A stretch of 39,463 bases of DNA from a virus (IMGVR_UViG_2875722834_000003:1-39463), one strand, 5' to 3'. Numbered from the stretch's first letter, positions 2,490 to 38,543 are shown. Notes: a model not told the origin generated them from the sequence alone. A program made the numbers and translations.

Positions 2490-2685
2490 TTCTGATCCTC
2501 TTCAAAAGGCTACCTGTTACTGGTCGATTTAAGTCAACCTTTACCGCTGATTCGTGGAACAGATACTCTCTTCCATCCTTAACCGGAGGTGGGAATATCC
2601 TGCATTCCCGAACCCATCGACGAACTGTTTCAAGGCTTCTTGGACGTCGCTGGCGTGCGTTCCACTCCTGAAGTGTCAAGTACAT
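2467..2685 (-). CDS. xis: Excisionase (lambda Xis)
   Basis: 72 aa MYLTLQEWNARQRRPRSLETVRRWVRECRIFPPPVKDGREYLFHESAVKVDLNRP..., matches recalled lambda Xis; 23-nt overlap with int start. Confidence 0.9.
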   Translation of the reverse strand: MYLTLQEWNARQRRPRSLETVRRWVRECRIFPPPVKDGREYLFHESAVKVDLNRPVTGSLLKRIRNGKKAKS

Positions 2686-2710
2686 CGCAAAGTCTCCGCA
2701 ATTACACGCA

Positions 2711-2733
2711 AGAAAAAACCGCCATCAGGCGGC
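2711..2733 (-). terminator. Intrinsic terminator (leftward transcription) between orf55 and xis
   Basis: Minus-strand RNA forms CCGCC-UGAU-GGCGG followed by UUUUUUCUU (plus strand AGAAAAAACCGCCATCAGGCGG). Confidence 0.5.
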
Positions 2734-2892
2734 TTGGTGTTCTTTCAGTTCTTCAATTCGAATATTGGTTACGTCTGCATGTGCTATCTGCGCCCACAGC
2801 ATCCAGTGGTCATAGCAGTCGCTGATGTTCTCGGCTTCGATAACTCTGTTGAATGGTTCTCCATTCCATTCACCTGTGACTCGGAAGTGCAT
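2725..2892 (-). CDS. Hypothetical small protein (55 aa) upstream of xis
   Basis: Not in ORF track (under 60 aa). ATG at 2890-2892 preceded by GGAGATGATAA; translation MHFRVTGEWNGEPFNRVIEAENISDCYDHWMLWAQIAHADVTNIRIEELKEHQAA; stop lies inside the terminator loop. Confidence 0.45.
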   Translation of the reverse strand: MHFRVTGEWNGEPFNRVIEAENISDCYDHWMLWAQIAHADVTNIRIEELKEHQAA

Positions 2893-2930
2893 TTATCATC
2901 TCCATAAAACAAAACTCGCCGTAGCGAGTT

Positions 2931-2960
2931 CAGATAAAAGAAATCCCCGCGAGTGCGAGG
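2931..2960 (-). terminator. Intrinsic terminator (leftward) downstream of the 249-aa gene
   Basis: Minus-strand RNA CCUCGC-ACUC-GCGGGG followed by AUUUCUUUUAU; same hairpin motif recurs at 18364-18382. Confidence 0.45.
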
Positions 2961-2992
2961 ACTGTTATTCACCTTTGACGGCAAGTTGCAGG

Positions 2993-3742
2993 TTAGCCAC
3001 GGTTAACCTCCTGCCGCGGCGCTGCTGGCAGCGATTTAATCCAAGCGGCTGCCAGAAGACGACTCCACGCATCCTTAGAATCCTCAGCGCCGTAATCAAT
3101 AATCGAATCGAATTCGTCTAGAATGGCTATCGTAGGCTCAACCGGCACCATCACCCAACCATCTGGAATCACCGGAGAGTTGCCACCCTGAACAGTAGGC
3201 ATATCCGGACCTTTGCGAATCGCCCTGGCAAGATCGATTGGGTCGTCGTACAACCAGTCACCTGTTTGCGGATGATTGGCTTCTGCCAATTGTGCAGCCC
3301 ACTCCAGGCCGTCTTTGTGTCCTTGCAGATAGTCCAGCGGTAACTCATCACTATTACTTACAGGTTCGGCCTGAAGCATGGCGGCGCGATAGGCGTTCCA
3401 GCCGACAGCTTTTCCGTGTTCAAACGCGCTGTCAAAGTCATCATCAATTTCCATCGCAGCGGGCACAGATACCGGCGCTGGCGGGGCGGTGTAAAGCGGC
3501 GTTACTTCTCGCAGCGGGTCGGCATAAGCATTGCCACTATCGAAGCTGACGTTGTTTTTTGCGCCGCCGCCTGACAGCAGCCACGCCACCGGCTCCTGCT
3601 CCATGCCAGCCGTCAGCGCTTCCAGTGCGATTTTGAAGATTTGCGCATCGAGTTGCGCTTCTTCAAAATCAGGGTAATGGGTTGTTACCGCAAGACGGCG
3701 CTCAAGCTTCTCAATCAACTGCTCTTTCGTAAATTCAGCCAT
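2993..3742 (-). CDS. Hypothetical strongly acidic early-left protein (249 aa)
   Basis: ORF track; ATG start at 3740-3742. By my residue count about 42 Asp/Glu against 18 Lys/Arg. No family recognised. Confidence 0.6.
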   Translation of the reverse strand: MAEFTKEQLIEKLERRLAVTTHYPDFEEAQLDAQIFKIALEALTAGMEQEPVAWLLSGGGAKNNVSFDSGNAYADPLREVTPLYTAPPAPVSVPAAMEIDDDFDSAFEHGKAVGWNAYRAAMLQAEPVSNSDELPLDYLQGHKDGLEWAAQLAEANHPQTGDWLYDDPIDLARAIRKGPDMPTVQGGNSPVIPDGWVMVPVEPTIAILDEFDSIIDYGAEDSKDAWSRLLAAAWIKSLPAAPRQEVNRG

Positions 3743-6854: not shown

Positions 6855-7013
6855 TTATGGCGATACCAGAGAGCTTTCTGCGTGTACATGCGTCTCTGTA
6901 ACTTGCTCTCCTTCACTGTGGTTGCAAGTGACATGAATATCTCCTTCGTTACCGATTAATTCTTTCATATGACGAATGAATTCCTCGTCTGACCAGTTAT
7001 CTGTAAAACTCAT
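6855..7013 (-). CDS. Hypothetical small protein (52 aa) in the kil/arf position
   Basis: ORF track 6855..7043 starts at TTG; ATG at 7011-7013 (MSFTDNWSDEEFIRHMKELIG...) overlaps the cIII-like stop (ATGA). Confidence 0.4.
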   Translation of the reverse strand: MSFTDNWSDEEFIRHMKELIGNEGDIHVTCNHSEGEQVTETHVHAESSLVSP

Positions 7014-7180
7014 GGACGGCCTTGTTGTTTCAAAATATCCCAAAGCTTTTCGAGCAAACTTTTCATTCTTGGTTGTTTAAAGTCTGCTCCGGTTAAAATA
7101 TTTTTTCGTGAATGCTGTACCGATAAAATCGGGTTGAAAGGGCGAACCGATGCCGCCCCTGCAATAGCGAACTGTTGCAT
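7010..7180 (-). CDS. cIII: CIII-like protein (FtsH inhibitor family)
   Basis: ORF track 7010..7285; ATG at 7178-7180 with AAGGAG 7 nt upstream; 56 aa MQQFAIAGAASVRPFNPILSVQHSRKNILTGADFKQPRMKSLLEKLWDILKQQGRP, same pattern as lambda CIII (MQYAIAG...LLERI...ILNQPG). Confidence 0.6.
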   Translation of the reverse strand: MQQFAIAGAASVRPFNPILSVQHSRKNILTGADFKQPRMKSLLEKLWDILKQQGRP

Positions 7181-7374
7181 AGGATGCTCCTTCTTTTTGA
7201 TTGCATAACGAAAACGCCTCGAGTGAAGCGTTATTGGTATGCATATAAAAAGGCCCTCACACTGGAGGGCAAAGAAGATTTCCAATAATCAGAACAAGTC
7301 GGCTCCTGTTTAGTTACGAGCGACATTGCTCCGTGTATTCACTCGTTGGAATGAATACACAGTGCTTATTCATA

Positions 7375-7845
7375 CTAATAAAACACCCAATTTTCTGTTT
7401 CTTGGTTGTGTCCAAAGTTATATTCAATATCTGGTGTTGATGTATCAATATTCTTCATCCCATCAACAAGAGTTGATACAACAGCCAAATCTTGTTTGAT
7501 TCTCATCAAATGGTATTTCTTCCGGCGCAATAAACTTTCAATGGCAAGTTTCTTCGTCGGGAACGCAAAAGATCTTTCTGCATTTTTTGCTACTTTCTTA
7601 ATTGCATATCTATTTCTCCTTTGTTTCCATTCCTGTAACCACTGATTTGGTGCTGGTTTAAAATTAACAATCCAATGCGCAGGAACCAACCATGCATAAT
7701 GCTCTGTCTGATGAAAAGCTATATATTGAAGTGCGAATATTTTGATTCCATCTTCTTCAACTGTCGCTTGGAATCTCCAGAAAACAGGCATTCCATCATG
7801 TTCAGTTTCTGATTCAGGAAAAGGTACGCTCCATGATTTTGTCAT
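7375..7845 (-). CDS. Hypothetical AT-rich accessory protein (156 aa), unknown function
   Basis: ORF track; ATG 7843-7845 with GAGGTGAGAT leader; sampled lines are about 33-37 % GC against about 48 % in N; no motif recognised. Confidence 0.65.
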   Translation of the reverse strand: MTKSWSVPFPESETEHDGMPVFWRFQATVEEDGIKIFALQYIAFHQTEHYAWLVPAHWIVNFKPAPNQWLQEWKQRRNRYAIKKVAKNAERSFAFPTKKLAIESLLRRKKYHLMRIKQDLAVVSTLVDGMKNIDTSTPDIEYNFGHNQETENWVFY

Positions 7846-7925
7846 ATCTCACCTCAAATAATTCAGTGCAGTGTTTATTCTGTTGTTTATGCCAAAAGAA
7901 GGCCGACTATGCGGCATAATTATTT

Positions 7926-8114
7926 TTAACTATCATCAATACATGGCACTTTATTCCAGTCGATATCGTTTTTATTGTCGTCCCACATGTCTTTGTTTTT
8001 GTATTTCTCGCTACATCCTAGGCAAATGTTGTATGGCCTACCGATAAGGTTTAACGAAATACGTTGCATTTCATTTGATTCAAACATGTATCCACAGAAC
8101 TGACATTTATGCAT
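7926..8114 (-). CDS. Hypothetical zinc-ribbon-like small protein (62 aa), immediately downstream of N
   Basis: ORF track; ATG 8112-8114 with GGGGTGAGAT leader, 3 nt after the N stop; CxxC (CQFCG) and CxxC (CLGCS) pairs; AT-rich. Confidence 0.6.
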   Translation of the reverse strand: MHKCQFCGYMFESNEMQRISLNLIGRPYNICLGCSEKYKNKDMWDDNKNDIDWNKVPCIDDS

Positions 8115-8117
8115 ATC

Positions 8118-8450
8118 TCACCCCTCATACAGTAGCTTACTGCCTGATTTCATTTTCTGGCGACCAACACAAGTCACCCCCATTTCACTGCGTGGCTTGC
8201 TGTACCATGTGCGCTGATTCTTGCGCTCAATACGTTGCAGGTTGCTTTCAATCTGTTCGTGGTATTCAGCCAGCACCGTAAGGTCTATCGGATTCAGTGC
8301 GCTTTCTACTCGTGATTTCGGTTTGCGATTCAGCGAGAGAATAGGGCGGTTAACTGGTTTTGCGCTTACCCCAACCAACAGGGGATTTGCTGCTTTCCAT
8401 TGAGCCTGTTTCTCTGCGCGACGTTCGCGGCGGCGTGTTTGTGCATCCAT
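8118..8450 (-). CDS. N: Antitermination protein N (lambda type)
   Basis: ORF track 8118..8540 starts at TTG; ATG at 8448-8450 gives MDAQTRRRERRAEKQAQWKAANPLLVGVSAKPVNRPILSLNRKPKSRVESALNPIDLTVLAEYH..., matching recalled lambda N; AGGAGA leader. Confidence 0.9.
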   Translation of the reverse strand: MDAQTRRRERRAEKQAQWKAANPLLVGVSAKPVNRPILSLNRKPKSRVESALNPIDLTVLAEYHEQIESNLQRIERKNQRTWYSKPRSEMGVTCVGRQKMKSGSKLLYEG

Positions 8451-8560
8451 CTGGATTCTCCTGTCAGTTAGCTTTGAGTAACGCGCCGTGATGCTTATCT
8501 CCACGGTTGCTGTCTTGCAGCTGCATTTCGCGCTACTCAAAGCTTTCTGCTTTGAATGCT

Positions 8561-8591
8561 GCCCTTCTTCAGGGCTTAATTTTTAAGAGCC
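8561..8591 (-). promoter_or_regulatory. nutL (boxA plus boxB) for N antitermination
   Basis: Minus-strand RNA reads GCUCUUAAAAAUUAAGCCCUGAAGAAGGGC; boxB GCCCTGAAGAAGGGC is the reverse complement of 8561-8575. Confidence 0.85.
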
Positions 8592-8630
8592 TCACCTTCA
8601 TGGTGGTCAGTGCGTCCTGCTGATGGCTAG

Positions 8631-8695
8631 ATAATCACAAATTGTGTTCGTGCTGTCAACACGAAATGTGATTGTTTTTATCACAACACGTGTTT
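8631..8695 (-). promoter_or_regulatory. pL promoter with three oL operators (non-lambda specificity)
   Basis: Minus-strand -35 TTGACA (8654-8659) and -10 GATTAT (8631-8636), 17-bp spacer; 17-bp pseudo-palindromes at 8633-8649, 8658-8674 and 8679-8695 with half-site AA(T/A)CACA. Confidence 0.6.
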
Positions 8696-8734
8696 TCATT
8701 GATTTTTAAGGTAATTTAATTTTCTTTGGGCAAC

Positions 8735-8766
8735 AAAAAACCCGCCGAAGCGGGTTTGATGTTTTT
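8735..8766. terminator. Bidirectional intrinsic terminator between cI and pL
   Basis: AAACCCGC-CGAA-GCGGGTTT perfect hairpin flanked by an A-run and a T-run; in the leftward sense it ends the cI transcript. Confidence 0.6.
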
Positions 8767-8780
8767 AAGTGGCGGGTATA

Positions 8781-9422
8781 TCAGGAGAATTTCATCATCA
8801 TCTGCACTGCTACGCCGATTATCTTGCAGTTGCCGTCGATTGGGATCAACGGATAGGCAGGGTTAAGCCCTTTCAGGTATTTGTTACCGCCATCAATGAT
8901 TAGCTTCTTGAACGTGGCTTCATTAGCATCTGTCAGCTTCGCAACTACCAGGCTTCCATTAACGGCTTCCTTTCCAGTGTCGAACAGAACCAGCATACCC
9001 TCAGGAACGCTAAGGCCGGTAGGAGCTGTCATTGAGTCGCCCTGAACCCTGAGCCAGAAGGCGTCACCGACAACGTGACAATCTGATTCATACCACTCAT
9101 CCACTGCCTGAGGGTTGTACGGCTCTACGGCCTCACTCCATGCACCTGCGCTAACCCAGCTAATCAACGGAAACTTTTCCCCTGGCTTGTATTGTCCCTG
9201 ATAGTTGTCGCCAAAAAGCAGTTCTGCCGGAGCGACGCCCAAAGCTTTAGCTATTACCTCTGCGTCATCAACACTAACGCTTCTGGTTCCTGATTCATAG
9301 TTGCCGATCCGAGATTGTGAAGCCCAGCCGCAAAGCTCCGCCAGAGCCTTCTGTGAAAGCCCTTTATCTTCCCGTAATCGCTTGATACGCGCGGCGATAG
9401 TTTCTGTTCTGTTCATGCGCAT
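8781..9422 (-). CDS. cI: CI-type prophage repressor (HTH plus S24 LexA-like autopeptidase)
   Basis: 213 aa; N-terminal HTH (LSQKALAELCGWASQSRIGNYESG); Ala-Gly cleavage site (VSAGAW); Ser in GDSM and Lys in VVAKL; divergent from cro across three operators. Confidence 0.85.
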   Translation of the reverse strand: MRMNRTETIAARIKRLREDKGLSQKALAELCGWASQSRIGNYESGTRSVSVDDAEVIAKALGVAPAELLFGDNYQGQYKPGEKFPLISWVSAGAWSEAVEPYNPQAVDEWYESDCHVVGDAFWLRVQGDSMTAPTGLSVPEGMLVLFDTGKEAVNGSLVVAKLTDANEATFKKLIIDGGNKYLKGLNPAYPLIPIDGNCKIIGVAVQMMMKFS

Positions 9423-9426
9423 TTTA

Positions 9427-9493
9427 TATCACATTCCGTGGTTTAAGGCTTTACACGATTTGTGTTGACTATCAATCACAATATGTGTTTAAT
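9427..9493. promoter_or_regulatory. oR operators (three) with divergent pRM/pR
   Basis: 17-bp sites at 9427-9443, 9451-9467 and 9474-9490, spaced 24 and 23 bp, same half-site family as oL; -35 TTGACT at 9465-9470, candidate -10 TTTAAT at 9488-9493 for pR. Confidence 0.6.
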
Positions 9494-9526
9494 AAAGACT
9501 GAGTGAACTAGCTCTTAAGGAAACCT

Positions 9527-9742
9527 ATGAACAACATTGCCAACGAACGGAAAAAACTTGGCATCACTCAATCTGCGTTAGCAGGCGCGTGTGGCTGGAA
9601 CCAGTCCCGCTTAGCTAACTACGAGTCAGGTATCCGGACTCCAGATTTAGAGTCGTGCCGTCGCCTGGTAAAGGCGCTGAATAAATTGGGGAGCAAGACA
9701 ACGCTAGATGGCTTGTTCCCGCCGGAACACAAAGCCGCTTAA
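9527..9742 (+). CDS. cro: Cro-like HTH repressor
   Basis: 71 aa MNNIANERKKLGITQSALAGACGWNQSRLANYESG...; AAGGAAA Shine-Dalgarno; first gene rightward of oR. Confidence 0.8.
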   Translation: MNNIANERKKLGITQSALAGACGWNQSRLANYESGIRTPDLESCRRLVKALNKLGSKTTLDGLFPPEHKAA

Positions 9743-9750
9743 GACATTCC

Positions 9751-9782
9751 CGCTCTTACACATCCCCGCCCTGAAAAAGGGC
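9751..9782 (+). promoter_or_regulatory. nutR (boxA CGCTCTTA, boxB GCCCTGAAAAAGGGC)
   Basis: boxA at 9751-9758 and boxB at 9768-9782, directly after the cro stop; matches recalled lambda nutR. Confidence 0.85.
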
Positions 9783-9861
9783 ATCAAATTAAACCACACC
9801 TATGGTGTATGCATTTATTTGCATACATTCAATCAATTGTTATCTAAGGAAATACTTACAT

Positions 9862-10140
9862 ATGCAACTTACAAGTACTCGCAAGAAAGCGAATGCAATT
9901 ACAAGCAACATCCTGAATCGAATTGCTGTACGTGGTCAGCGAAAGGTTGCCGACGCGTTAGGGATTAATGAATCGCAAATTTCGCGATGGAAAGACAGCT
10001 TCATCCCCAAAATGGGAATGCTTCTTGCTGTTCTTGAATGGGGTGTTGAAGACGAGGAGTTGGCGGAACTGGCTAAGAAAGTAGCCAGAATGCTGACAAA
10101 AGAAAAAGCCCCGAAGAACGGCGAATTCTTCGAGGCCTGA
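9862..10140 (+). CDS. cII: CII-type transcriptional activator (P22 C1-like)
   Basis: ORF track 9802..10140; ATG at 9862 behind the lambda-like leader TAAGGAAATACTTACAT; MQLTSTRKKANAITSNILNRIAVRGQRKVADALGINESQISRWK... aligns with lambda CII. Confidence 0.8.
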   Translation: MQLTSTRKKANAITSNILNRIAVRGQRKVADALGINESQISRWKDSFIPKMGMLLAVLEWGVEDEELAELAKKVARMLTKEKAPKNGEFFEA

Positions 10141-10174
10141 TGTAGAAAGACTGGATCAATCCACAGGAGTAATT

Positions 10175-10336
10175 ATGACAAAACGTCGTAAGAAATACCA
10201 GGAAAAAGAAGAGATTCGACACCCTGATTCACCTGAGGGATTAGTGGTAGCCGCAGCAAATAACAGGGCGTTCGCAGAGCGCCTTGTTGGTGTTTACAGA
10301 CTAGCCAAAGCAGGAGTGAAGCATGGGCGTCGTTAA
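10175..10336 (+). CDS. Hypothetical small basic protein (53 aa)
   Basis: Not in ORF track; ATG 10175 with AGGAG 5 nt upstream; MTKRRKKYQEKEEIRHPDSPEGLVVAAANNRAFAERLVGVYRLAKAGVKHGRR; overlaps the O-like start by 14 nt. Confidence 0.4.
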   Translation: MTKRRKKYQEKEEIRHPDSPEGLVVAAANNRAFAERLVGVYRLAKAGVKHGRR

Positions 10337-11213
10337 GTTAGCTGATTACAGGCATAACCCTGTACAACATCAGGAGGCATCCAGTATGGGGTATGTCTCT
10401 ATACACCGCCAGTTTATGGACAGCAGGCTCTATAAGGACTCTCAGGCAGTACATCTTTGGCTTCACTTAATCCTCAAGGCTAATCACGAATCTACTGTCG
10501 TCAATACGGATATCGGTCCGATAACTGTTGATCGCGGTCAGATGATAACTGGACGCCCGTCGCTGGTCAGAGAAACATTCATCCCCGACAACAAAGTTCG
10601 GAGCTTATTACGGACTTTTGAGTCGAAAGGGATGCTTAATATTTGCTCGATGGGGAAGAAATTTAGCCTGTTTACAATCGTTAAATATGACGATTTTCAG
10701 GCAAAAAATTGTCCAACGGTTGTCCAACGGTTGTCCAACGCAAACACCAGTAATGGTGCGGCTCTCAGCGGAGATTGTCCAACGGTTGTCCAACGGTTGT
10801 CCATAAACAATAATATAAATAATATCTCTAATACTGACGTATTAGAGAGTGCCACAGCAGACAAAAAGTCTGACAAGAAAAAACCTTCCGTCAGCTGTCA
10901 GGATGTTGTCGATGCTTACCACGAAATCCTTCCTGACGCGCCAAGAATCCGCGCACTGAATGACAAGCGTAAAAACCAGATCCGAACGTTCTGGCGCAAA
11001 GCCGGAGTGATAACCCGCCAGCTTGACGGGCATGGGTTCACGATGCAGGACTGGAGAAATTATTTGAGCTACGTAGGCGAAAATTGCCGATGGATGTTCG
11101 AAGAGCGTCCAAACCATCAACGCGGAACTGTCTGGCACAAAAAGGGATTTGATTTCCTGCTTAACGATAATACCTACCTGAAAGTTCGTGAGGGTGAACA
11201 CGATGACCGATAA
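10323..11213 (+). CDS. Replication initiator (O-like / P22 gene 18 analogue) carrying the origin
   Basis: 296 aa; AGGAG leader; tandem iterons and an AT-rich tract lie inside the coding region as in lambda O; sits directly upstream of the helicase. Confidence 0.65.
   Translation: MGVVKLADYRHNPVQHQEASSMGYVSIHRQFMDSRLYKDSQAVHLWLHLILKANHESTVVNTDIGPITVDRGQMITGRPSLVRETFIPDNKVRSLLRTFESKGMLNICSMGKKFSLFTIVKYDDFQAKNCPTVVQRLSNANTSNGAALSGDCPTVVQRLSINNNINNISNTDVLESATADKKSDKKKPSVSCQDVVDAYHEILPDAPRIRALNDKRKNQIRTFWRKAGVITRQLDGHGFTMQDWRNYLSYVGENCRWMFEERPNHQRGTVWHKKGFDFLLNDNTYLKVREGEHDDR
10709..10807 (+). repeat. Origin iterons: two clusters of three 11-bp TTGTCCAACGG repeats
   Basis: Copies at 10709, 10720, 10731 and at 10775, 10786, 10797 (last copy degenerate), read directly. 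Confidence 0.85.
10709..10848 (+). promoter_or_regulatory. Putative replication origin (iterons, AT-rich tract, 24-bp palindrome)
   Basis: Iterons, then AT-rich 10803-10824, then perfect inverted repeat TCTCTAATAC-tgac-GTATTAGAGA at 10825-10848; same architecture as lambda ori. Confidence 0.65.
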
Positions 11214-12639
11214 TTTTTATGCGCCGCCCCATAGCATCGAGGCAGAGCAGGCGGTGATTGGTGGATTGCTTCTGGATGATGACAGCAGTGAGCGCGTCCA
11301 GAAGGTTCTGGTGATGCTGAAGCCTGATTCATTTTACAGCCGGCCACACAAAATCATTTTCGAAGAAATAACCAGAATGCACCGTGAGCAAAAGCCAGTA
11401 GATGGCCTGACGCTTTTCGATGAACTGGAGCGTAAATCGTTAACGGCGTCTGTTGGCGGTTTTGCTTATATCGCTGAGATCGCAAAGAACACGCCAAGCG
11501 CAGCAAACATCGTTGCTTATGCAATGCAGGTTCGCGAAACCGCAATGGAACGCTACGCCATCAACCGCATGACTGAAGCGACGGAATTGCTCTATTCCCG
11601 CAATGGAATGACTGCAACGCAGAAGTACGAAGCTATTCAGGCGATTTTCACGCAACTGATAGACCATGCAAAAACCGGATCGCGTCGCGGCCTTCGTTCA
11701 TTTGGTGAGGTCATGGAAGACTGGGTTAGCGACCTTGAGAAGCGATTTGACCCGTCAGGCGAACAACGAGGAATGAGCACAGGGATCCCATCGCTGGACA
11801 GGATGCTGTCACCGAAAGGTCTGGTGAAAGGCTCTCTGTTTGTCATTGGCGCTCGCCCTAAGATGGGGAAAACGACGCTATACAGCCAGATGGCAATCAA
11901 CTGCGCAGTGCATGAGAAAAAGCCCGCTCTGATGTTCAGCCTTGAAATGCCAGGTGACCAGATACTGGAAAAACTGGTGGGACAGAAGTCAGGTGTTAAC
12001 CCGAATATTTTTTACCTTCCGGCGACAAATGACGCTGATGACGGCTATCAGGGTGATTACGATGGTGACTTCAATAGGGCGATCGAAACAGCCAATCGCT
12101 TGAGTGAAATCGACCTGCTTTACATCGACGACACGCCGGGGTTATCTCTGGCTCAAATCGTCAGCGAAAGCCGTCGAATCAAGCGAGAAAAAGGATGTGT
12201 TGGCATGATTTTGGTCGATTACCTGACACTAATGACCGCTGAAAAGGCCGATCGCAACGACCTTGCTTACGGCATGATCACCAAAGGACTGAAGAACCTT
12301 GCCAAAGAGCTTGATTGCGTTGTTGTGCTTCTGACACAGCTTAACCGCGCACTGGAAAGCCGAACCAATAAACGCCCATTACCAAGTGACTCACGAGATA
12401 CAGGGCAGATTGAACAGGATTGCGATTATTGGGTTGGGATCCATCGGGAAGGTGCTTTTGATGACAGCGTTCCTCCTGGTGAAACCGAACTAATCCTTCG
12501 TCTCAATCGTCATGGCAATACCGGCACGGTGTATTGCATACAGGCAAATGGCGCTATTTATGACACAGACCAACAGTCTGCTGAAATGCGCCGACGTGAA
12601 CGCGAGGAACCGCAGTCCAAGAAGAAAGGAGGATTCTGA
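11203..12639 (+). CDS. DnaB-family replicative helicase (P22 gene 12 type)
   Basis: ORF track 11188..12639 starts at GTG; ATG 11203 with GAGGGTGA upstream; MTDNFYAPPHSIEAEQAVIGGLLLDD... typical DnaB N-terminus; Walker A-like ARPKMGKT. Confidence 0.85.
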   Translation: MTDNFYAPPHSIEAEQAVIGGLLLDDDSSERVQKVLVMLKPDSFYSRPHKIIFEEITRMHREQKPVDGLTLFDELERKSLTASVGGFAYIAEIAKNTPSAANIVAYAMQVRETAMERYAINRMTEATELLYSRNGMTATQKYEAIQAIFTQLIDHAKTGSRRGLRSFGEVMEDWVSDLEKRFDPSGEQRGMSTGIPSLDRMLSPKGLVKGSLFVIGARPKMGKTTLYSQMAINCAVHEKKPALMFSLEMPGDQILEKLVGQKSGVNPNIFYLPATNDADDGYQGDYDGDFNRAIETANRLSEIDLLYIDDTPGLSLAQIVSESRRIKREKGCVGMILVDYLTLMTAEKADRNDLAYGMITKGLKNLAKELDCVVVLLTQLNRALESRTNKRPLPSDSRDTGQIEQDCDYWVGIHREGAFDDSVPPGETELILRLNRHGNTGTVYCIQANGAIYDTDQQSAEMRRREREEPQSKKKGGF

Positions 12640-15733: not shown

Positions 15734-15918
15734 ACGCCACAATTCAAACGATACCAGAGCTTCTTATCCAGACACGAGGCAATCAGACCGAAGTGGCGAG
15801 GATGCTTTCCTGCGCAAGAGGAACAGTGCTCAAGTACAACCGAGACAGCAAAGGTGAGCGTCACGTAATAGTTAACGGCGTCCTGATGGTCACGCCAGGC
15901 AAAAAGGGAAGACGATGA
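15730..15918 (+). CDS. ninH: NinH-like protein
   Basis: 62 aa MNATIQTIPELLIQTRGNQTEVARMLSCARGTVLKYNRDSKGERHVIVNGVLMV, similar to recalled lambda NinH. Confidence 0.7.
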   Translation: MNATIQTIPELLIQTRGNQTEVARMLSCARGTVLKYNRDSKGERHVIVNGVLMVTPGKKGRR

Positions 15919-16538
15919 GACTCGAAAGCGTAGCTAAATTTCATTCGCCAAAAAGCCCGATGATGAGCGACTCACCACGGGCCACGGCTTCTGACTCTCT
16001 TTCCGGTACTGATGTGATGGCTGCTATGGGGATGGCGCAATCACAAGCCGGATTCGGTATGGCTGCATTCTGCGGTAAGCACGAACTCAGCCAGAACGAC
16101 AAACAAAAGGCTATCAACTATCTGATGCAATTTGCACACAAGGTATCGGGGAAATACCGTGGTGTGGCAAAGCTCGAAGGAAATACTAAGGCAAAGGTAC
16201 TGCAAGTGCTCGCAACATTCGCTTATGCGGATTATTGCCGTAGTGCCGCGACGCCGGGGGCAAGATGCAGAGATTGCCACGGTACAGGCCGCGCGGTTGA
16301 TATAGCAAAAACAGAGCAGTGGGGGAGAGTTGTTGAGAAAGAGTGCGGAAGATGCAAAGGTGTCGGCTATTCAAGGATGCCAGCAAGCGCCGCATATCGC
16401 GCTGTAACGATGCTAATTCCAAACCTTACTCAACCCACCTGGTCACGCACTGTTAAGCCGCTGTATGACGCTCTGGTGGTGCAATGCCACAAAGAAGAGT
16501 CAATCGCAGACAACATTTTGAATGCGGTCACACGTTAG
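15915..16538 (+). CDS. Q: Late antiterminator Q (lambda type)
   Basis: 207 aa MRLESVAKFHSPKSPMMSDSPRATASDSLSGTDVMAAMGMAQSQAGFG..., matches recalled lambda Q; followed by a lambda-like pR'. Confidence 0.9.
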   Translation: MRLESVAKFHSPKSPMMSDSPRATASDSLSGTDVMAAMGMAQSQAGFGMAAFCGKHELSQNDKQKAINYLMQFAHKVSGKYRGVAKLEGNTKAKVLQVLATFAYADYCRSAATPGARCRDCHGTGRAVDIAKTEQWGRVVEKECGRCKGVGYSRMPASAAYRAVTMLIPNLTQPTWSRTVKPLYDALVVQCHKEESIADNILNAVTR

Positions 16539-34872: not shown

Positions 34873-37020
34873 ATGCCAGAACAATTATACAACGTTGTTG
34901 TTTCACAACCAAGTCAGTTATTTACTTTAGCTCGCTCGTTTAAAGCAAATGCCAATGGCAAAATTTATATCGGTAAAATTGACACTGACCCTGTAAATCC
35001 TGAAAACCAGATTCAGGTTTATGTGGAGAACGAAGACGGCTCTCACGTTCCTGTATCCCAGCCAATCATCATTAACGCCGCTGGTTATCCGGTATATAAC
35101 GGACAGATTGCCAAATTCGTTACCGTGCAAGGCCATTCTATGGCTGTTTATGATGCATATGGTGCTCAACAGTTCTATTTTCCTAATGTGCTTAAGTATG
35201 ACCCTGACCAGTTCAGGGCAATTATAGAGTCACCAGAAGGTGCTGGACACGTAGGATATCAGTATCGCAGGAATACAGGTGCGACCATGAGAATGGTAAG
35301 CGATGTGCTGGATGAGCGTGTCAGCCTTTGGGATTTTCACTGCGATTCATCAGGTAACGTAATTCAGCCCGGGCCAACTGTGGATAGTCGGCAGTACATT
35401 CAAAAGGCTATTGACGCGATATACGAAGCTGGCGGTGGAACACTAATTATCCCAACGGGAACATGGTATCTAAACTCGTATGGTGTTCCAGATAAAATTT
35501 CTAACTATGGTGGAGTAATCCACTGGCGCTCTCGTGTCAATATTCACTTTGAAGCCGGTTCTACGCTAAAGCTGACAAACTACTTCAATGAACGCGGCTA
35601 TTGCGTTATCTGTGGTTTTGACGGTAATGACCCCGCAACGTCTGGCGATTTGCGCGATGCAATGATTACGGGTAATGGAACCATTCACTGCGGGGACAAT
35701 ATACAGGCGGTGGGAGGCTCGCTAGCATATGCGATAGGCACTGGGAGATCATACAACGTAAGCGTAAGGGATATACACATTACTGGTGGGGACCTGACTT
35801 GGGCCGTGACACTTGGATGGAATGGTTATGGCAATAATACTGTTGTAGATGGGGTCACTGTTACTGAGGTTAAGAAGACTGAGGTTGCCCGTAACGTTGA
35901 CCAGTCCCTCTTCTATGTGGGGTGTCAGTTCTCTGGTATACAGAACTGCTATATGAAACCTTCTGAATCAGGGTTGGCCGCAAAAATATCAGCAGCAGTG
36001 GAACTTCACCAGTCTGGCACTTTTTGCCTGAACAACCAGATGTATGGATTCATGCGTGGTGTTTATGTTGTTTTGCACGGACGTGAAACGGCAGGCAGCG
36101 GTCTATTCATGAACAATATTCGTGTATCTGGTAACACTGCGTACATTAATGGTCAGTTTGTGACTGTAGGTGCGGATAGTATAGATTTTGATACTCATGT
36201 TTCTGATGTAATTATATCCGATAACATTTGTACCATTATGAACCCTGTAGACTCTGCTCCATTGGTTAGATGCTTTATATCATCTGACTTGTTTGTAGAG
36301 GCCCCGCCGGATAATGAAACTGCGCGCGTACTGGTTGATGGGAATATCTTCTTAGCGCCAACAACTACCCCAGACAGTTTATTTTTCTTTTACAGAGTAA
36401 GCAGCCGTGGGTTTTACTTTAGCAACAACATGTGTGATTGCCGTCGTATAATTTCTGGGGATGGGGCCGGCACTGGTATTGTAGAACTACGCGATATAAT
36501 CTGGGACGCATCCAATAAGATTGGGCCTACTTGGATAGGTCAACGTGGCGGTAATGCGAACATGTTTGAGTTTTACGTCGCCAATATTTTACGCTGTAAA
36601 TTTGAAATATCTATGCCATATGTGGACACTAGCATGGCTAGTATTTTCTACGCGCCAGATACGGCCAATATAACGTTTACAGTAGTCAAAGTTGATCCAG
36701 AAAATATACCATCTTCTGTAACTGCAGTTAGCATCTCAGAGGCTAACAAAAACCGGGGAACAAATTACTTTGAGTTCCCGGAAACTATATCCTTCTCATC
36801 TTTCAACACCGCGGGAGCAGTATTTTGCTACAGCACATCAACTAACTATGCCTGGTGTGGAAGTGCAACGGCATTGTCAAAGTCAGGAGTTTCTGGGCTG
36901 GTAACTCCTGGTGAATATGGTGTCAAAGATAACGGTCAGCTTGGTGGGGTAGGATATAATGATACAGGCGCAGCCAGGAACTGGAGCCAGCGTGTTTTAT
37001 TAAAAAGCGCAATAGAATAA
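34873..37020 (+). CDS. Tailspike protein (P22-type head-binding domain plus beta-helix receptor-binding/depolymerase domain)
   Basis: ORF track 34864..37020; ATG 34873 chosen by alignment to the P22 tailspike N-terminus (NVVVS..., [33 protein letters not shown]); the remaining about 600 aa differ from P22. Confidence 0.85.
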
Positions 37021-37055: not shown

Positions 37056-38543
37056 TTATTTTTTGTATACCAGTATTGTCATATCTCCCTTATTTAAAAC
37101 TTTTTCAGGCTTCCCATTTTTAGATGAAATGGCGTTGATACACGACTGTATGTCTCCGCACTTTTCATGCCCATCAATAGCGATAAAGTATTTTCCATTT
37201 GATGGCATTGCTTCTTTACTGTACCAACTTCTCATGGTTTGATATCGAGGTGAGTTAAAATCAATAGACCCATTTTCAGAAATATCTACAGGTGCGATAA
37301 CTACCTCCCCATTGGAAGCCCAGAATGTAGTTAGGCTTTTATTCCAGTAGTCACCATAACCATAACTCAAATTATTATCTAGTAAAAACGCAGAATAATC
37401 CTTTATCTCCCGTTCAGAATCTTCGTAAGTTTTATTTCCAAAGTTAAAGGTTATAGCGCTCGACAGTACAAATAAAATGCAAATGGCATATGCTAGCCAT
37501 TTTGTCATTCTGCTATGAGCAACTGAATATACTATGAACACAAAAGGTGCAATATTCACAAAAAAGCGAGGTATAGGCTGGCTTGGGTCTGGATTGCTTA
37601 CTGTATAAGCTGAGATAATTCCAGCGGCGGAAAGTAGGGATAGCATAAAAAAATAACTAGAACTATCTTTCCTCAGAATCCCTGTTATGCATACATAACA
37701 AAATAACCCCCCCACAAGAATAAATGAGGCTATATATAGGGAGTGCTGCCTGAGGAAGAAAATGTTAAACATTTCACCAACCGTGAGAATCAGTTGATGT
37801 GCGTTCCCCTGCATTGTAACAAAATCAACAATATTAAAAGGTTGAGAGTCGATTCCCATTAATTTTGGTATTGTATGATTCAGAGCAATACCATAAAAAA
37901 TAGCAAGGAGAATGAAATTTACTAATTTTGTTTCTTTTCTGATGACAAAAATGAGTTCAGTAATCAGAATTGGAAGGAGATAAGTAGGCGCAGCCCACAT
38001 ATCTGAGGAACAAACTAATAACCCAAAAATGCCAACTATGGCATATGATAAAAGCCCTTGATCTCTATGTGCTTTCATTGCCATAAGGCATGTTAGCATT
38101 CCAAAAGCAACAGTAGAGTAGTGAGCAAATGGATGCTGAACAAATCCATCTGTCCAATATATGTGCGGCAAAGCAGCAAGAGGCACTGCGCAAACTAGTA
38201 ATGAACTTCGCTTGTTTAATTTCTTTGATATTGTAGATGCGATAATTATGACGCTGAATGCAAAAAAAGCAGATCCAAATATCAGCATTGGAGCGCCATA
38301 ACTTCCTAATATCAAATAAAACAGAAAGTATACAGGGTACAATGTAAAGTACCAGTTATCCGGTGTCGGGTTCCAATCAGTAAGAGACTTGAAACCGTGT
38401 TCCTTAAACTCAAGCCATACAACAGGACCATTTACTCCATCAGCATCTATTCTGAAGTATATATAAGAAAGATAAGAGATAGATATTGCGCATAAGAGCA
38501 ATATTACAATCTCTATTGATTTTTTATTTATTAGGTGTTTCAT
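37056..38543 (-). CDS. gtrC: GtrC-like serotype-specific O-antigen glucosyltransferase (polytopic membrane protein)
   Basis: 495 aa, multiple hydrophobic segments plus a C-terminal soluble domain; directly downstream of gtrB with ATGA overlap; about 27-33 % GC in sampled lines. Confidence 0.6.

Follow-up and report, generated by a model that had tools for sequence, protein, structure and literature searches.

In classical hybrids such as lambda imm434 and lambda imm21, the early region is of lambda type but holds a heterologous cassette of cI, operators and cro. Lambdoid phages frequently transfer cI and cro together (PMC9836094), and the 46 lambdoid phages of the Kameyama 1999 collection, from which the mEp phages stem, fall into 19 immunity groups (PMC11893012). 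For one of them, mEp213 (JQ182733 / NC_019720 / PV340538), an immunity group separate from those of lambda, HK022, mEpX1 and others has been reported, and double and triple lysogens of lambda and mEp213 have been constructed (PMC3442831). Here we describe the control region of a viral sequence of 39,463 nucleotides (IMGVR_UViG_2875722834_000003:1-39463; "the window" denotes this whole stretch of analysed DNA). It very probably carries, at 8626-9748, the oL-terminator-cI-oR-cro immunity cassette of mEp213, set between N and nut signals of lambda type.

The region is no new system but the usual switch between lysis and lysogeny of a lambda-like prophage; its mosaic structure is of the textbook kind, a clean example of lambdoid modular exchange. 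A first-pass annotation had described it as a hybrid of lambda antitermination and non-lambda immunity. It had missed that the cassette is already on record in combination with lambda-type N, nutL and nutR, in the described phages mEp213 and Bas106. As a discovery the locus therefore carries little weight, since the combination occurs in sequenced, cultured phages and heteroimmunity to lambda has been published. Its value is one of annotation: the immunity group is assigned, the exchange junctions are placed, to a few bases, at the pL start and at the cro stop codon, and an explicit operator and promoter map becomes available for a group whose operators are apparently not described in the literature that mentions mEp213.

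Identity and extent of the immunity cassette

When window positions 8400-9800 were compared by megablast with 50,697 phage records, mEp213 (three records) and the BASEL phage CurroJimenez_Bas106 (PQ850599; Bas106) matched with 99.6% identity, and phage ECP1 matched with 98.5% identity over a segment limited to window 8612-9743. The cI protein is identical to that of mEp213 at all 213 residues and 100% identical to that of Bas106, and the Cro protein is 100% identical to mEp213 Cro. In the alignments with both phages, the six operator 17-mers, the promoters and the terminator have the same sequences as in the window; in mEp213 this identity includes pL, pR and nutR, and N, of the same lambda type, is 98.9% identical at the DNA level. 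Bas106 is 99.5% identical to window 8538-10180 without a gap and has the same cI, nutL boxA and cII (in the cII block, mEp213 reaches 95% identity to the window, against 99.5%), but its replication genes are different. The full cassette is carried by 14 of 5,426 complete E. coli genomes.

Judged by sequence, the identical cI and the identical operator set at pL and pR place the prophage in the mEp213 immunity group (imm-mEp213). It does not resemble an imm-lambda phage, as its cI is 33.6% identical to lambda cI and its Cro is an HTH_3 protein unlike lambda Cro. The first-pass annotation had called for a comparison with known immunity groups: cI and operators match mEp213, and in sequence the specificity is not that of lambda, 434 or P22 C2. 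The relationship does not extend to the virion. The tail proteins of mEp213 are reported to be quite similar to those of lambda and its head proteins to be Gifsy-2-like (PMC12315714), whereas the virion genes of the window are P22-like. As a whole, the window is a P22-like (Lederbergvirus-type) mosaic, and a novel one without a full-length match in the phage collection; the best matches are Huey, 720R6, phiv205-1, CUS-3 and Kapi1, with coverage of at most 53%.

Alignment with lambda (J02459) shows where the cassette begins and ends. Lambda homology stops at 8625, at the pL start, and resumes at 9749, 6 nt past the cro stop codon; for the intervening 8626-9748, with oL, terminator, cI, oR and cro, no identity to lambda is detectable. 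To the left, 8538-8625 comprises nutL and the very start of the pL transcript and matches lambda 35496-35583, where Nutl is annotated, with 97.7% identity, and 8149-8476, with N and its proximal leader, is 94% identical to lambda 35062-35386. To the right, 9749-9864 is 98.3% identical to lambda 38247-38362; this tR1 region contains rutA, nutR, rutB, the stretch to cII and the cII start codon. As ECP1 has a different left arm, its alignment and that with lambda together narrow the exchange junctions to 8612-8626, at the pL start, and 9743-9749, directly past the cro stop. Accordingly, the cassette begins with the pL start and ends with the stop codon of cro.

The N protein (8118-8450, minus strand; 110 aa; Pfam N36, E 1.7e-26) is lambda-like, as had been claimed: 96 of the 110 aligned positions are identical to lambda N, among them all of residues 1-64 including the arginine-rich motif, and the last ~25 residues diverge. 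The nut sites sit as in lambda, one downstream of pL and the other downstream of pR, past cro. In nutR (9751-9782, plus strand), boxA CGCTCTTA (9751-9758) and boxB GCCCTGAAAAAGGGC (9768-9782; hairpin -9.4 kcal/mol, z -2.4) are both identical to lambda. In nutL (8561-8591, minus strand), boxB GCCCTGAAGAAGGGC (8561-8575; hairpin -9.4 kcal/mol) is also identical, and after a spacer boxA GGCTCTTA (8584-8591) matches lambda CGCTCTTA in seven of eight bases. The first base (8591) is G in the window and C in lambda and in mEp213, whose nutL is otherwise identical. The claimed match of the nut sites to lambda thus stands but for this one base. With an N protein that has the boxB-binding N terminus, and with boxA/boxB sites to match, antitermination is by all appearances of the lambda type. 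The first-pass annotation had drawn the hybrid region at 8561-9493; the features it named are all present, but N and nutR lie outside this range. In the retention of N and both nut sites of lambda type the arrangement recalls lambda imm434 and differs from imm21, which brings its own N.

Outside the cassette, lambda homology is interrupted by a 61-nt segment of the N leader (8477-8537), which has no identity to the 109 nt at its place in lambda (35387-35495). The same variant occurs in HK542, HK244 and SfI. In both mEp213 and Bas106 the N leader has 219 nt at this place, with a small open reading frame (ORF) annotated there in Bas106. The lambda N leader contains the RNase III site that controls N translation, and the regulation of N may therefore differ from that in lambda.

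Operators, repressor and promoters

Three 17-bp pseudo-palindromes lie at oL and three at oR, as the first-pass annotation had proposed: oL1 (AATCACAAATTGTGTTC, 8633-8649), oL2 (CAACACGAAATGTGATT, 8657-8673) and oL3 (TATCACAACACGTGTTT, 8679-8695) on one side of cI, and oR3 (TATCACATTCCGTGGTT, 9427-9443), oR2 (TTACACGATTTGTGTTG, 9451-9467) and oR1 (AATCACAATATGTGTTT, 9474-9490) on the other. With at most one mismatch, the pattern AWCACRNNNYGTGWT finds exactly these six sites across the 39,463-bp window and no others; by chance 1.3 would be expected, and no shuffle out of 100 gave as many as six. The consensus of the 12 half-sites is nAWCACR(W)(W), with C4, A5 and C6 invariant and A2 present in 11. 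Centre-to-centre spacings are 24 and 22 bp at oL and 24 and 23 bp at oR, the triplets overlap both hexamers, -35 and -10, of pL and of pR, and the centres of oL1 and oR1 are 0.84 kb apart, compared with 2.4 kb in lambda.

The statement that these are not lambda operators holds only in part. When the 12 window half-sites are set against the 12 of lambda, they agree at A2, C4, A5 and C6. At positions 7-9, however, all 12 window half-sites read R-W-W where lambda has Y-G-S, and it is here that they depart from the lambda consensus half-site TATCACCGC. Each window operator is identical to its best-matching lambda operator at 10-12 of 17 bases. When at most one mismatch is allowed, a generic frame, NANCACNNNNNGTGNTN (nAnCAC-N5-GTGnTn), catches the six operators of lambda as well as the six of the window. 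With the pL start, which both phages share, as reference, oL1, oL2 and the -35 hexamer have the same register as in lambda, and the overlap of oR2 with the pR -35 hexamer is likewise common to both; in pL, pR and pRM alike the lambda register is kept. The operators are best described as a diverged lambda type, in which the 17-bp frame, the spacing and the promoter overlap have been kept and divergence lies mainly at positions 7-9. Being this close to the lambda frame, the group offers a handy comparison for studies of repressor specificity.

The repressor gene (8781-9422, minus strand) encodes 213 aa, or 211 aa from a second ATG at 9416. The predicted S24-autopeptidase was found: the protein combines an HTH_3 domain (residues 13-68, E 3e-14) with a Peptidase_S24 domain (residues 85-206, E 3e-25), and among solved structures it is closest to full-length lambda repressor (3bdn; E 4.9e-27, residues 11-206). 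The motifs VSAG, GDSM and TFKKL align with lambda VQAG (A111-G112), GNSM (S149) and TFKKL (K192), so that Ala92-Gly93, Ser130 and Lys172 correspond to the lambda cleavage site and catalytic residues. With HTH and S24 domains, the Ala-Gly site and the Ser/Lys dyad in place, cI has the make-up of a self-cleaving repressor of the LexA/cI S24 type, and from the alignment RecA-stimulated self-cleavage would be expected.

The closest relatives of cI differ between its two domains. Over the whole protein they are Serratia OS31 (55%) and HF4s (51%), followed by mEp235 and P22 (~48%). Because the N-terminal domains and Cros of OS31 and HF4s are lambda-like, their similarity must lie in the C-terminal domain. 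We considered all four as phages that might share the specificity of the window repressor and rejected them, as what they share is only the C-terminal domain; the N-terminal domain and Cro of each resemble those of lambda or P22. The N-terminal domain alone does not repeat the 47.6% whole-protein identity to P22 C2, and it has no significant similarity to the DNA-binding chains of 434 repressor and P22 C2 (E 0.5); against lambda repressor chains the E-values are 0.03-0.9. Its closest relatives are Citrobacter Chris1 (67%), Salmonella S107 (64%), mEpX1/VT1-Sakai (59%) and Edwardsiella GF-2 (57%), whose Cro proteins are 54-64% identical to that of the window. These phages also carry triplets of 17-bp nAWCACR operators, spaced by 23-24 bp, between cI and cro, and the generic frame catches two to three of the three cI-cro intergenic sites each in Chris1, S107, mEpX1 and GF-2. 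Chris1 and the Aeromonas phage pAEv1818 differ in that their repressors are short (126 aa) and lack the S24 domain.

Cro (9527-9742, plus strand; 71 aa; Pfam HTH_3, E 1.3e-12) belongs to another fold class than the 66-aa lambda Cro and is 434-like. Its best solved relative is the "lambda repressor-like protein" of PDB 28tn (chain 28tn_A; E 2.9e-12, residues 1-69), which has a different recognition helix. The Cro helix-turn-helix, CGW-NQSRLANYESG, closely matches CGWASQSRIGNYESG in cI, with the common motif QSR[IL]xNYESG. Such a near-repeat of the recognition helix is expected if both proteins read the same sites. In the structures of lambda cI and Cro, A2 is recognized by the Gln at position 1 of helix 3, and the C4:G pair by the Ser at position 2. 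Both window cI and window Cro have Gln-Ser at the start of helix 3, which fits the outer half-site shared with lambda; this is a lead and not a demonstration, as some relatives replace the Gln in cI. The turn of the cI helix-turn-helix (9302-9343, residues ~27-40) has one extra residue, GW-AS-QSR, compared with GW-N-QSR in the Cro of the window and GW-A-QSR in Chris1 cI, and the longer turn is common to most cI proteins of this N-terminal-domain family.

Two early promoters can be read from the DNA. pL (8624-8659, minus strand) consists of a -35 hexamer TTGACA (8654-8659), a 17-nt spacer and a -10 hexamer GATTAT (8631-8636); a sigma-70 scan gave 10 of 12 matches with a TG upstream of the -10, and the promoter overlaps oL1 and oL2. 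Its start is placed at 8624 because the transcript start ATCAGCAGG is identical in lambda. pR (9465-9493, plus strand) consists of TTGACT (9465-9470), a 17-nt spacer and TTTAAT (9488-9493). The promoter scan did not list it because the -10 hexamer lacks an A at position 2, but the 11-mer GTGTTGACTAT, formed by the end of oR2 and the -35 hexamer, is identical to lambda, and the equivalent promoter is annotated in mEpX1. A candidate pRM (9416-9451, minus strand) would consist of a -10 hexamer TATAAA (9423-9428) and a weak -35 hexamer AAGCCT (9446-9451); the -10 hexamer shares 2 nt with oR3 and has an ATG at a distance of 6 nt, a geometry like that of lambda pRM. On this analogy we predict that transcription starts at the A of the second cI ATG (9416), which would yield a leaderless mRNA for a 211-aa cI. 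Bas106 cI is annotated from the second ATG.

As the first-pass annotation had noted, rexAB is absent, in a further difference from lambda: there is no ORF in the 85 bp from the cI stop codon to oL3. Instead, an intrinsic terminator follows cI (8732-8757, minus strand; stem 8738-8757, U-run 8732-8737). For its GC-rich hairpin with an 8-bp stem, both strands score as a terminator, in line with the bidirectional terminator that had been proposed, but the reading is weaker on the plus strand (z -1.7) than on the minus strand, that of cI (-16.8 kcal/mol, z -2.9), where the T-run is clearly better.

The predicted switch and competing readings

Taken together, these elements most likely form a lambda-style bistable switch with mEp213 specificity. 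Dimers of cI would bind cooperatively to oR1 and oR2 and to oL1 and oL2 and so repress pR and pL, and cI at oR2 would probably also activate the weak, leaderless pRM and thereby its own synthesis. Cro, with nearly the same recognition helix, would bind the same six sites and turn pRM off in the lytic state. The SOS response would induce the prophage by RecA-stimulated cleavage of cI between Ala92 and Gly93 through the Ser130/Lys172 dyad. Repression would be established by cII, acting via a box at the pRE position. N made from pL would bind boxB of nutL and nutR and permit readthrough of tL and tR1 as in lambda, with expression of the delayed early genes. The terminator behind cI would end the immunity transcript, in place of the rexA, rexB and timm segment of lambda. 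As operator positions 7-9 (R-W-W versus Y-G-S) and the N-terminal domain of the repressor differ from lambda, the specificity should differ too, and a lysogen should be immune to phages of the mEp213 type and not to lambda. The heteroimmunity to lambda that the first-pass annotation had predicted is documented experimentally for mEp213, the bearer of identical cI, Cro and operators (PMC3442831).

Some observations weigh against this account of the switch. In nutL, boxA has the changed first base mentioned above; the same G is found in Bas106, a viable phage. The -35 hexamer of the predicted pRM is very poor (two of six matches), and the centre of oR2 lies 43 nt from the predicted pRM start, compared with 42 in lambda, which together make activation of pRM by cI uncertain. 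Moreover, we found no binding or expression data on these operators in the literature that mentions mEp213, and the assignment of the sites follows sequence logic and analogy. We infer in the same way which protein binds which site, the cooperativity of binding, the activation of pRM and the leaderless start.

If the cassette were functionally of lambda immunity, or cross-reactive with it, lambda cI and window cI would repress each other's promoters. We consider this very improbable. It is true that the operators of both phages fit one frame, that they have more than half of their bases in common, and that helix 3 of cI still begins with Gln-Ser, and lambda cI has been found to bind other lambdoid 17-bp operators weakly in vitro, with micromolar KD (PMC10742460). 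However, the bases at positions 7-9 differ systematically, the N-terminal domain of cI is barely recognizable as a relative of lambda repressor within a protein that is one third identical, and the reported double lysogens of lambda and mEp213 are stable, with mEp213 in an immunity group of its own (PMC3442831). Scarcely more probable is a reading in which the prophage is cryptic, the region has decayed to a remnant and its switch is dead. The novelty of the mosaic, without a full-length match in the phage collection, might speak for it. But every element is intact, from cI, cro, N and cII to the six operators, the two nut sites and the promoters, and all are identical or 94-99% identical to those of the plaque-forming phages mEp213, Bas106 and lambda.

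A partial overlap in operator specificity with the immunity of mEpX1 and VT1-Sakai (an Stx1 phage) deserves somewhat more credit, and even so we regard it as unlikely. It would allow cross-talk, such as Cro of one phage acting on the operators of the other. Two of 17 positions separate mEpX1 oR1 (AATCACAAATTGTGTGT) from window oL1, the recognition helix of Cro is almost unchanged between the two phages (QSRIANYE in mEpX1, QSRLANYE in the window), and the N-terminal domains of the repressors are 59% identical. Yet the cI residues before helix 3 differ (AAPSR versus ASQSR), and mEpX1 and mEp213 are listed as separate immunity groups (PMC3442831), so that where the two have been tested they are distinct. 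A related idea, which we put forward as no less speculative, is that the operators of imm-mEp213 have diverged from those of lambda only minimally, with a specificity set almost wholly by the central 5 bp and, in the repressor, by helix 3 and the short N-terminal arm, and with a half-site core and a Cro recognition helix that are also common to the group of mEpX1 and the Stx1 prophage VT1-Sakai. If true, nominally separate immunity groups could partially recognize each other in polylysogens, for instance through trans-derepression by Cro, and these groups would form a natural series for studying how new immunity specificities originate in small steps. On balance we favor a functional switch with mEp213 specificity.

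Flanking genes and minor observations

Around the cassette, the early ORFs follow the order N (leftward), the 213-aa repressor (leftward), the 71-aa cro (rightward), cII (rightward) and the replication genes downstream. The cII gene (9862-10140, plus strand) encodes 92 aa (Pfam Phage_CII, E 1.8e-42). A cII box of the form TTGCN6TTGC, TTGCTTGTAATTGC, is located within the cII 5' end at the pRE position (9895-9908, minus strand). Two further boxes of this form, both on the minus strand, lie at 2698-2711, upstream of int as in a pI promoter, and at 16202-16215, antisense inside the ORF at 15915-16538 as in paQ. The motif as such is not enriched in the window, with six occurrences against 3.8 expected by chance; the positions of these boxes at the lambda equivalents are, as positions alone, suggestive. 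Within the ORF of a replication initiator (10323-11213), direct repeats of TTGTCCAACGG between 10700 and 10810 (three tandem copies, a gap and three more) look like origin iterons of the kind found in lambda O. An Rfam scan of 7000-11500 with E-values up to 1 returned no curated family for nut or other RNAs, only a chance snoRNA-like match.

ECP1 (KY979108) carries at 2670-3311 an intact cI of mEp213 immunity with a single change, S23T. In the deposited annotation only a 387-nt ORF is given, leaving the N-terminal part of cI unannotated. We rejected the idea that ECP1 is a virulent derivative with broken cI and mutated operators, as the alignment is ungapped, cI is intact and the operator changes fall on weakly conserved positions.

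In the assemblies of E. coli 0H24 and 0H26, a P22-like phage genome with the cassette is present as a circular "plasmid" record of 39,448 bp (NZ_CP081786.1 and related), in addition to a chromosomal copy. E. coli 0H25 has a similar record of 29,741 bp, and these records suggest that the prophage was excised or replicating in the cultures concerned. The window has only ~8.9 kb in common with NZ_CP081786. Finally, the 48.4-kb record MW057783.1 (Campylobacter phage CJLB-4) matches the lambda-type N region at ~35230-35516 with the identity and coverage of lambda itself and at lambda-like coordinates, and looks like lambda DNA that entered the record through contamination or mislabelling.

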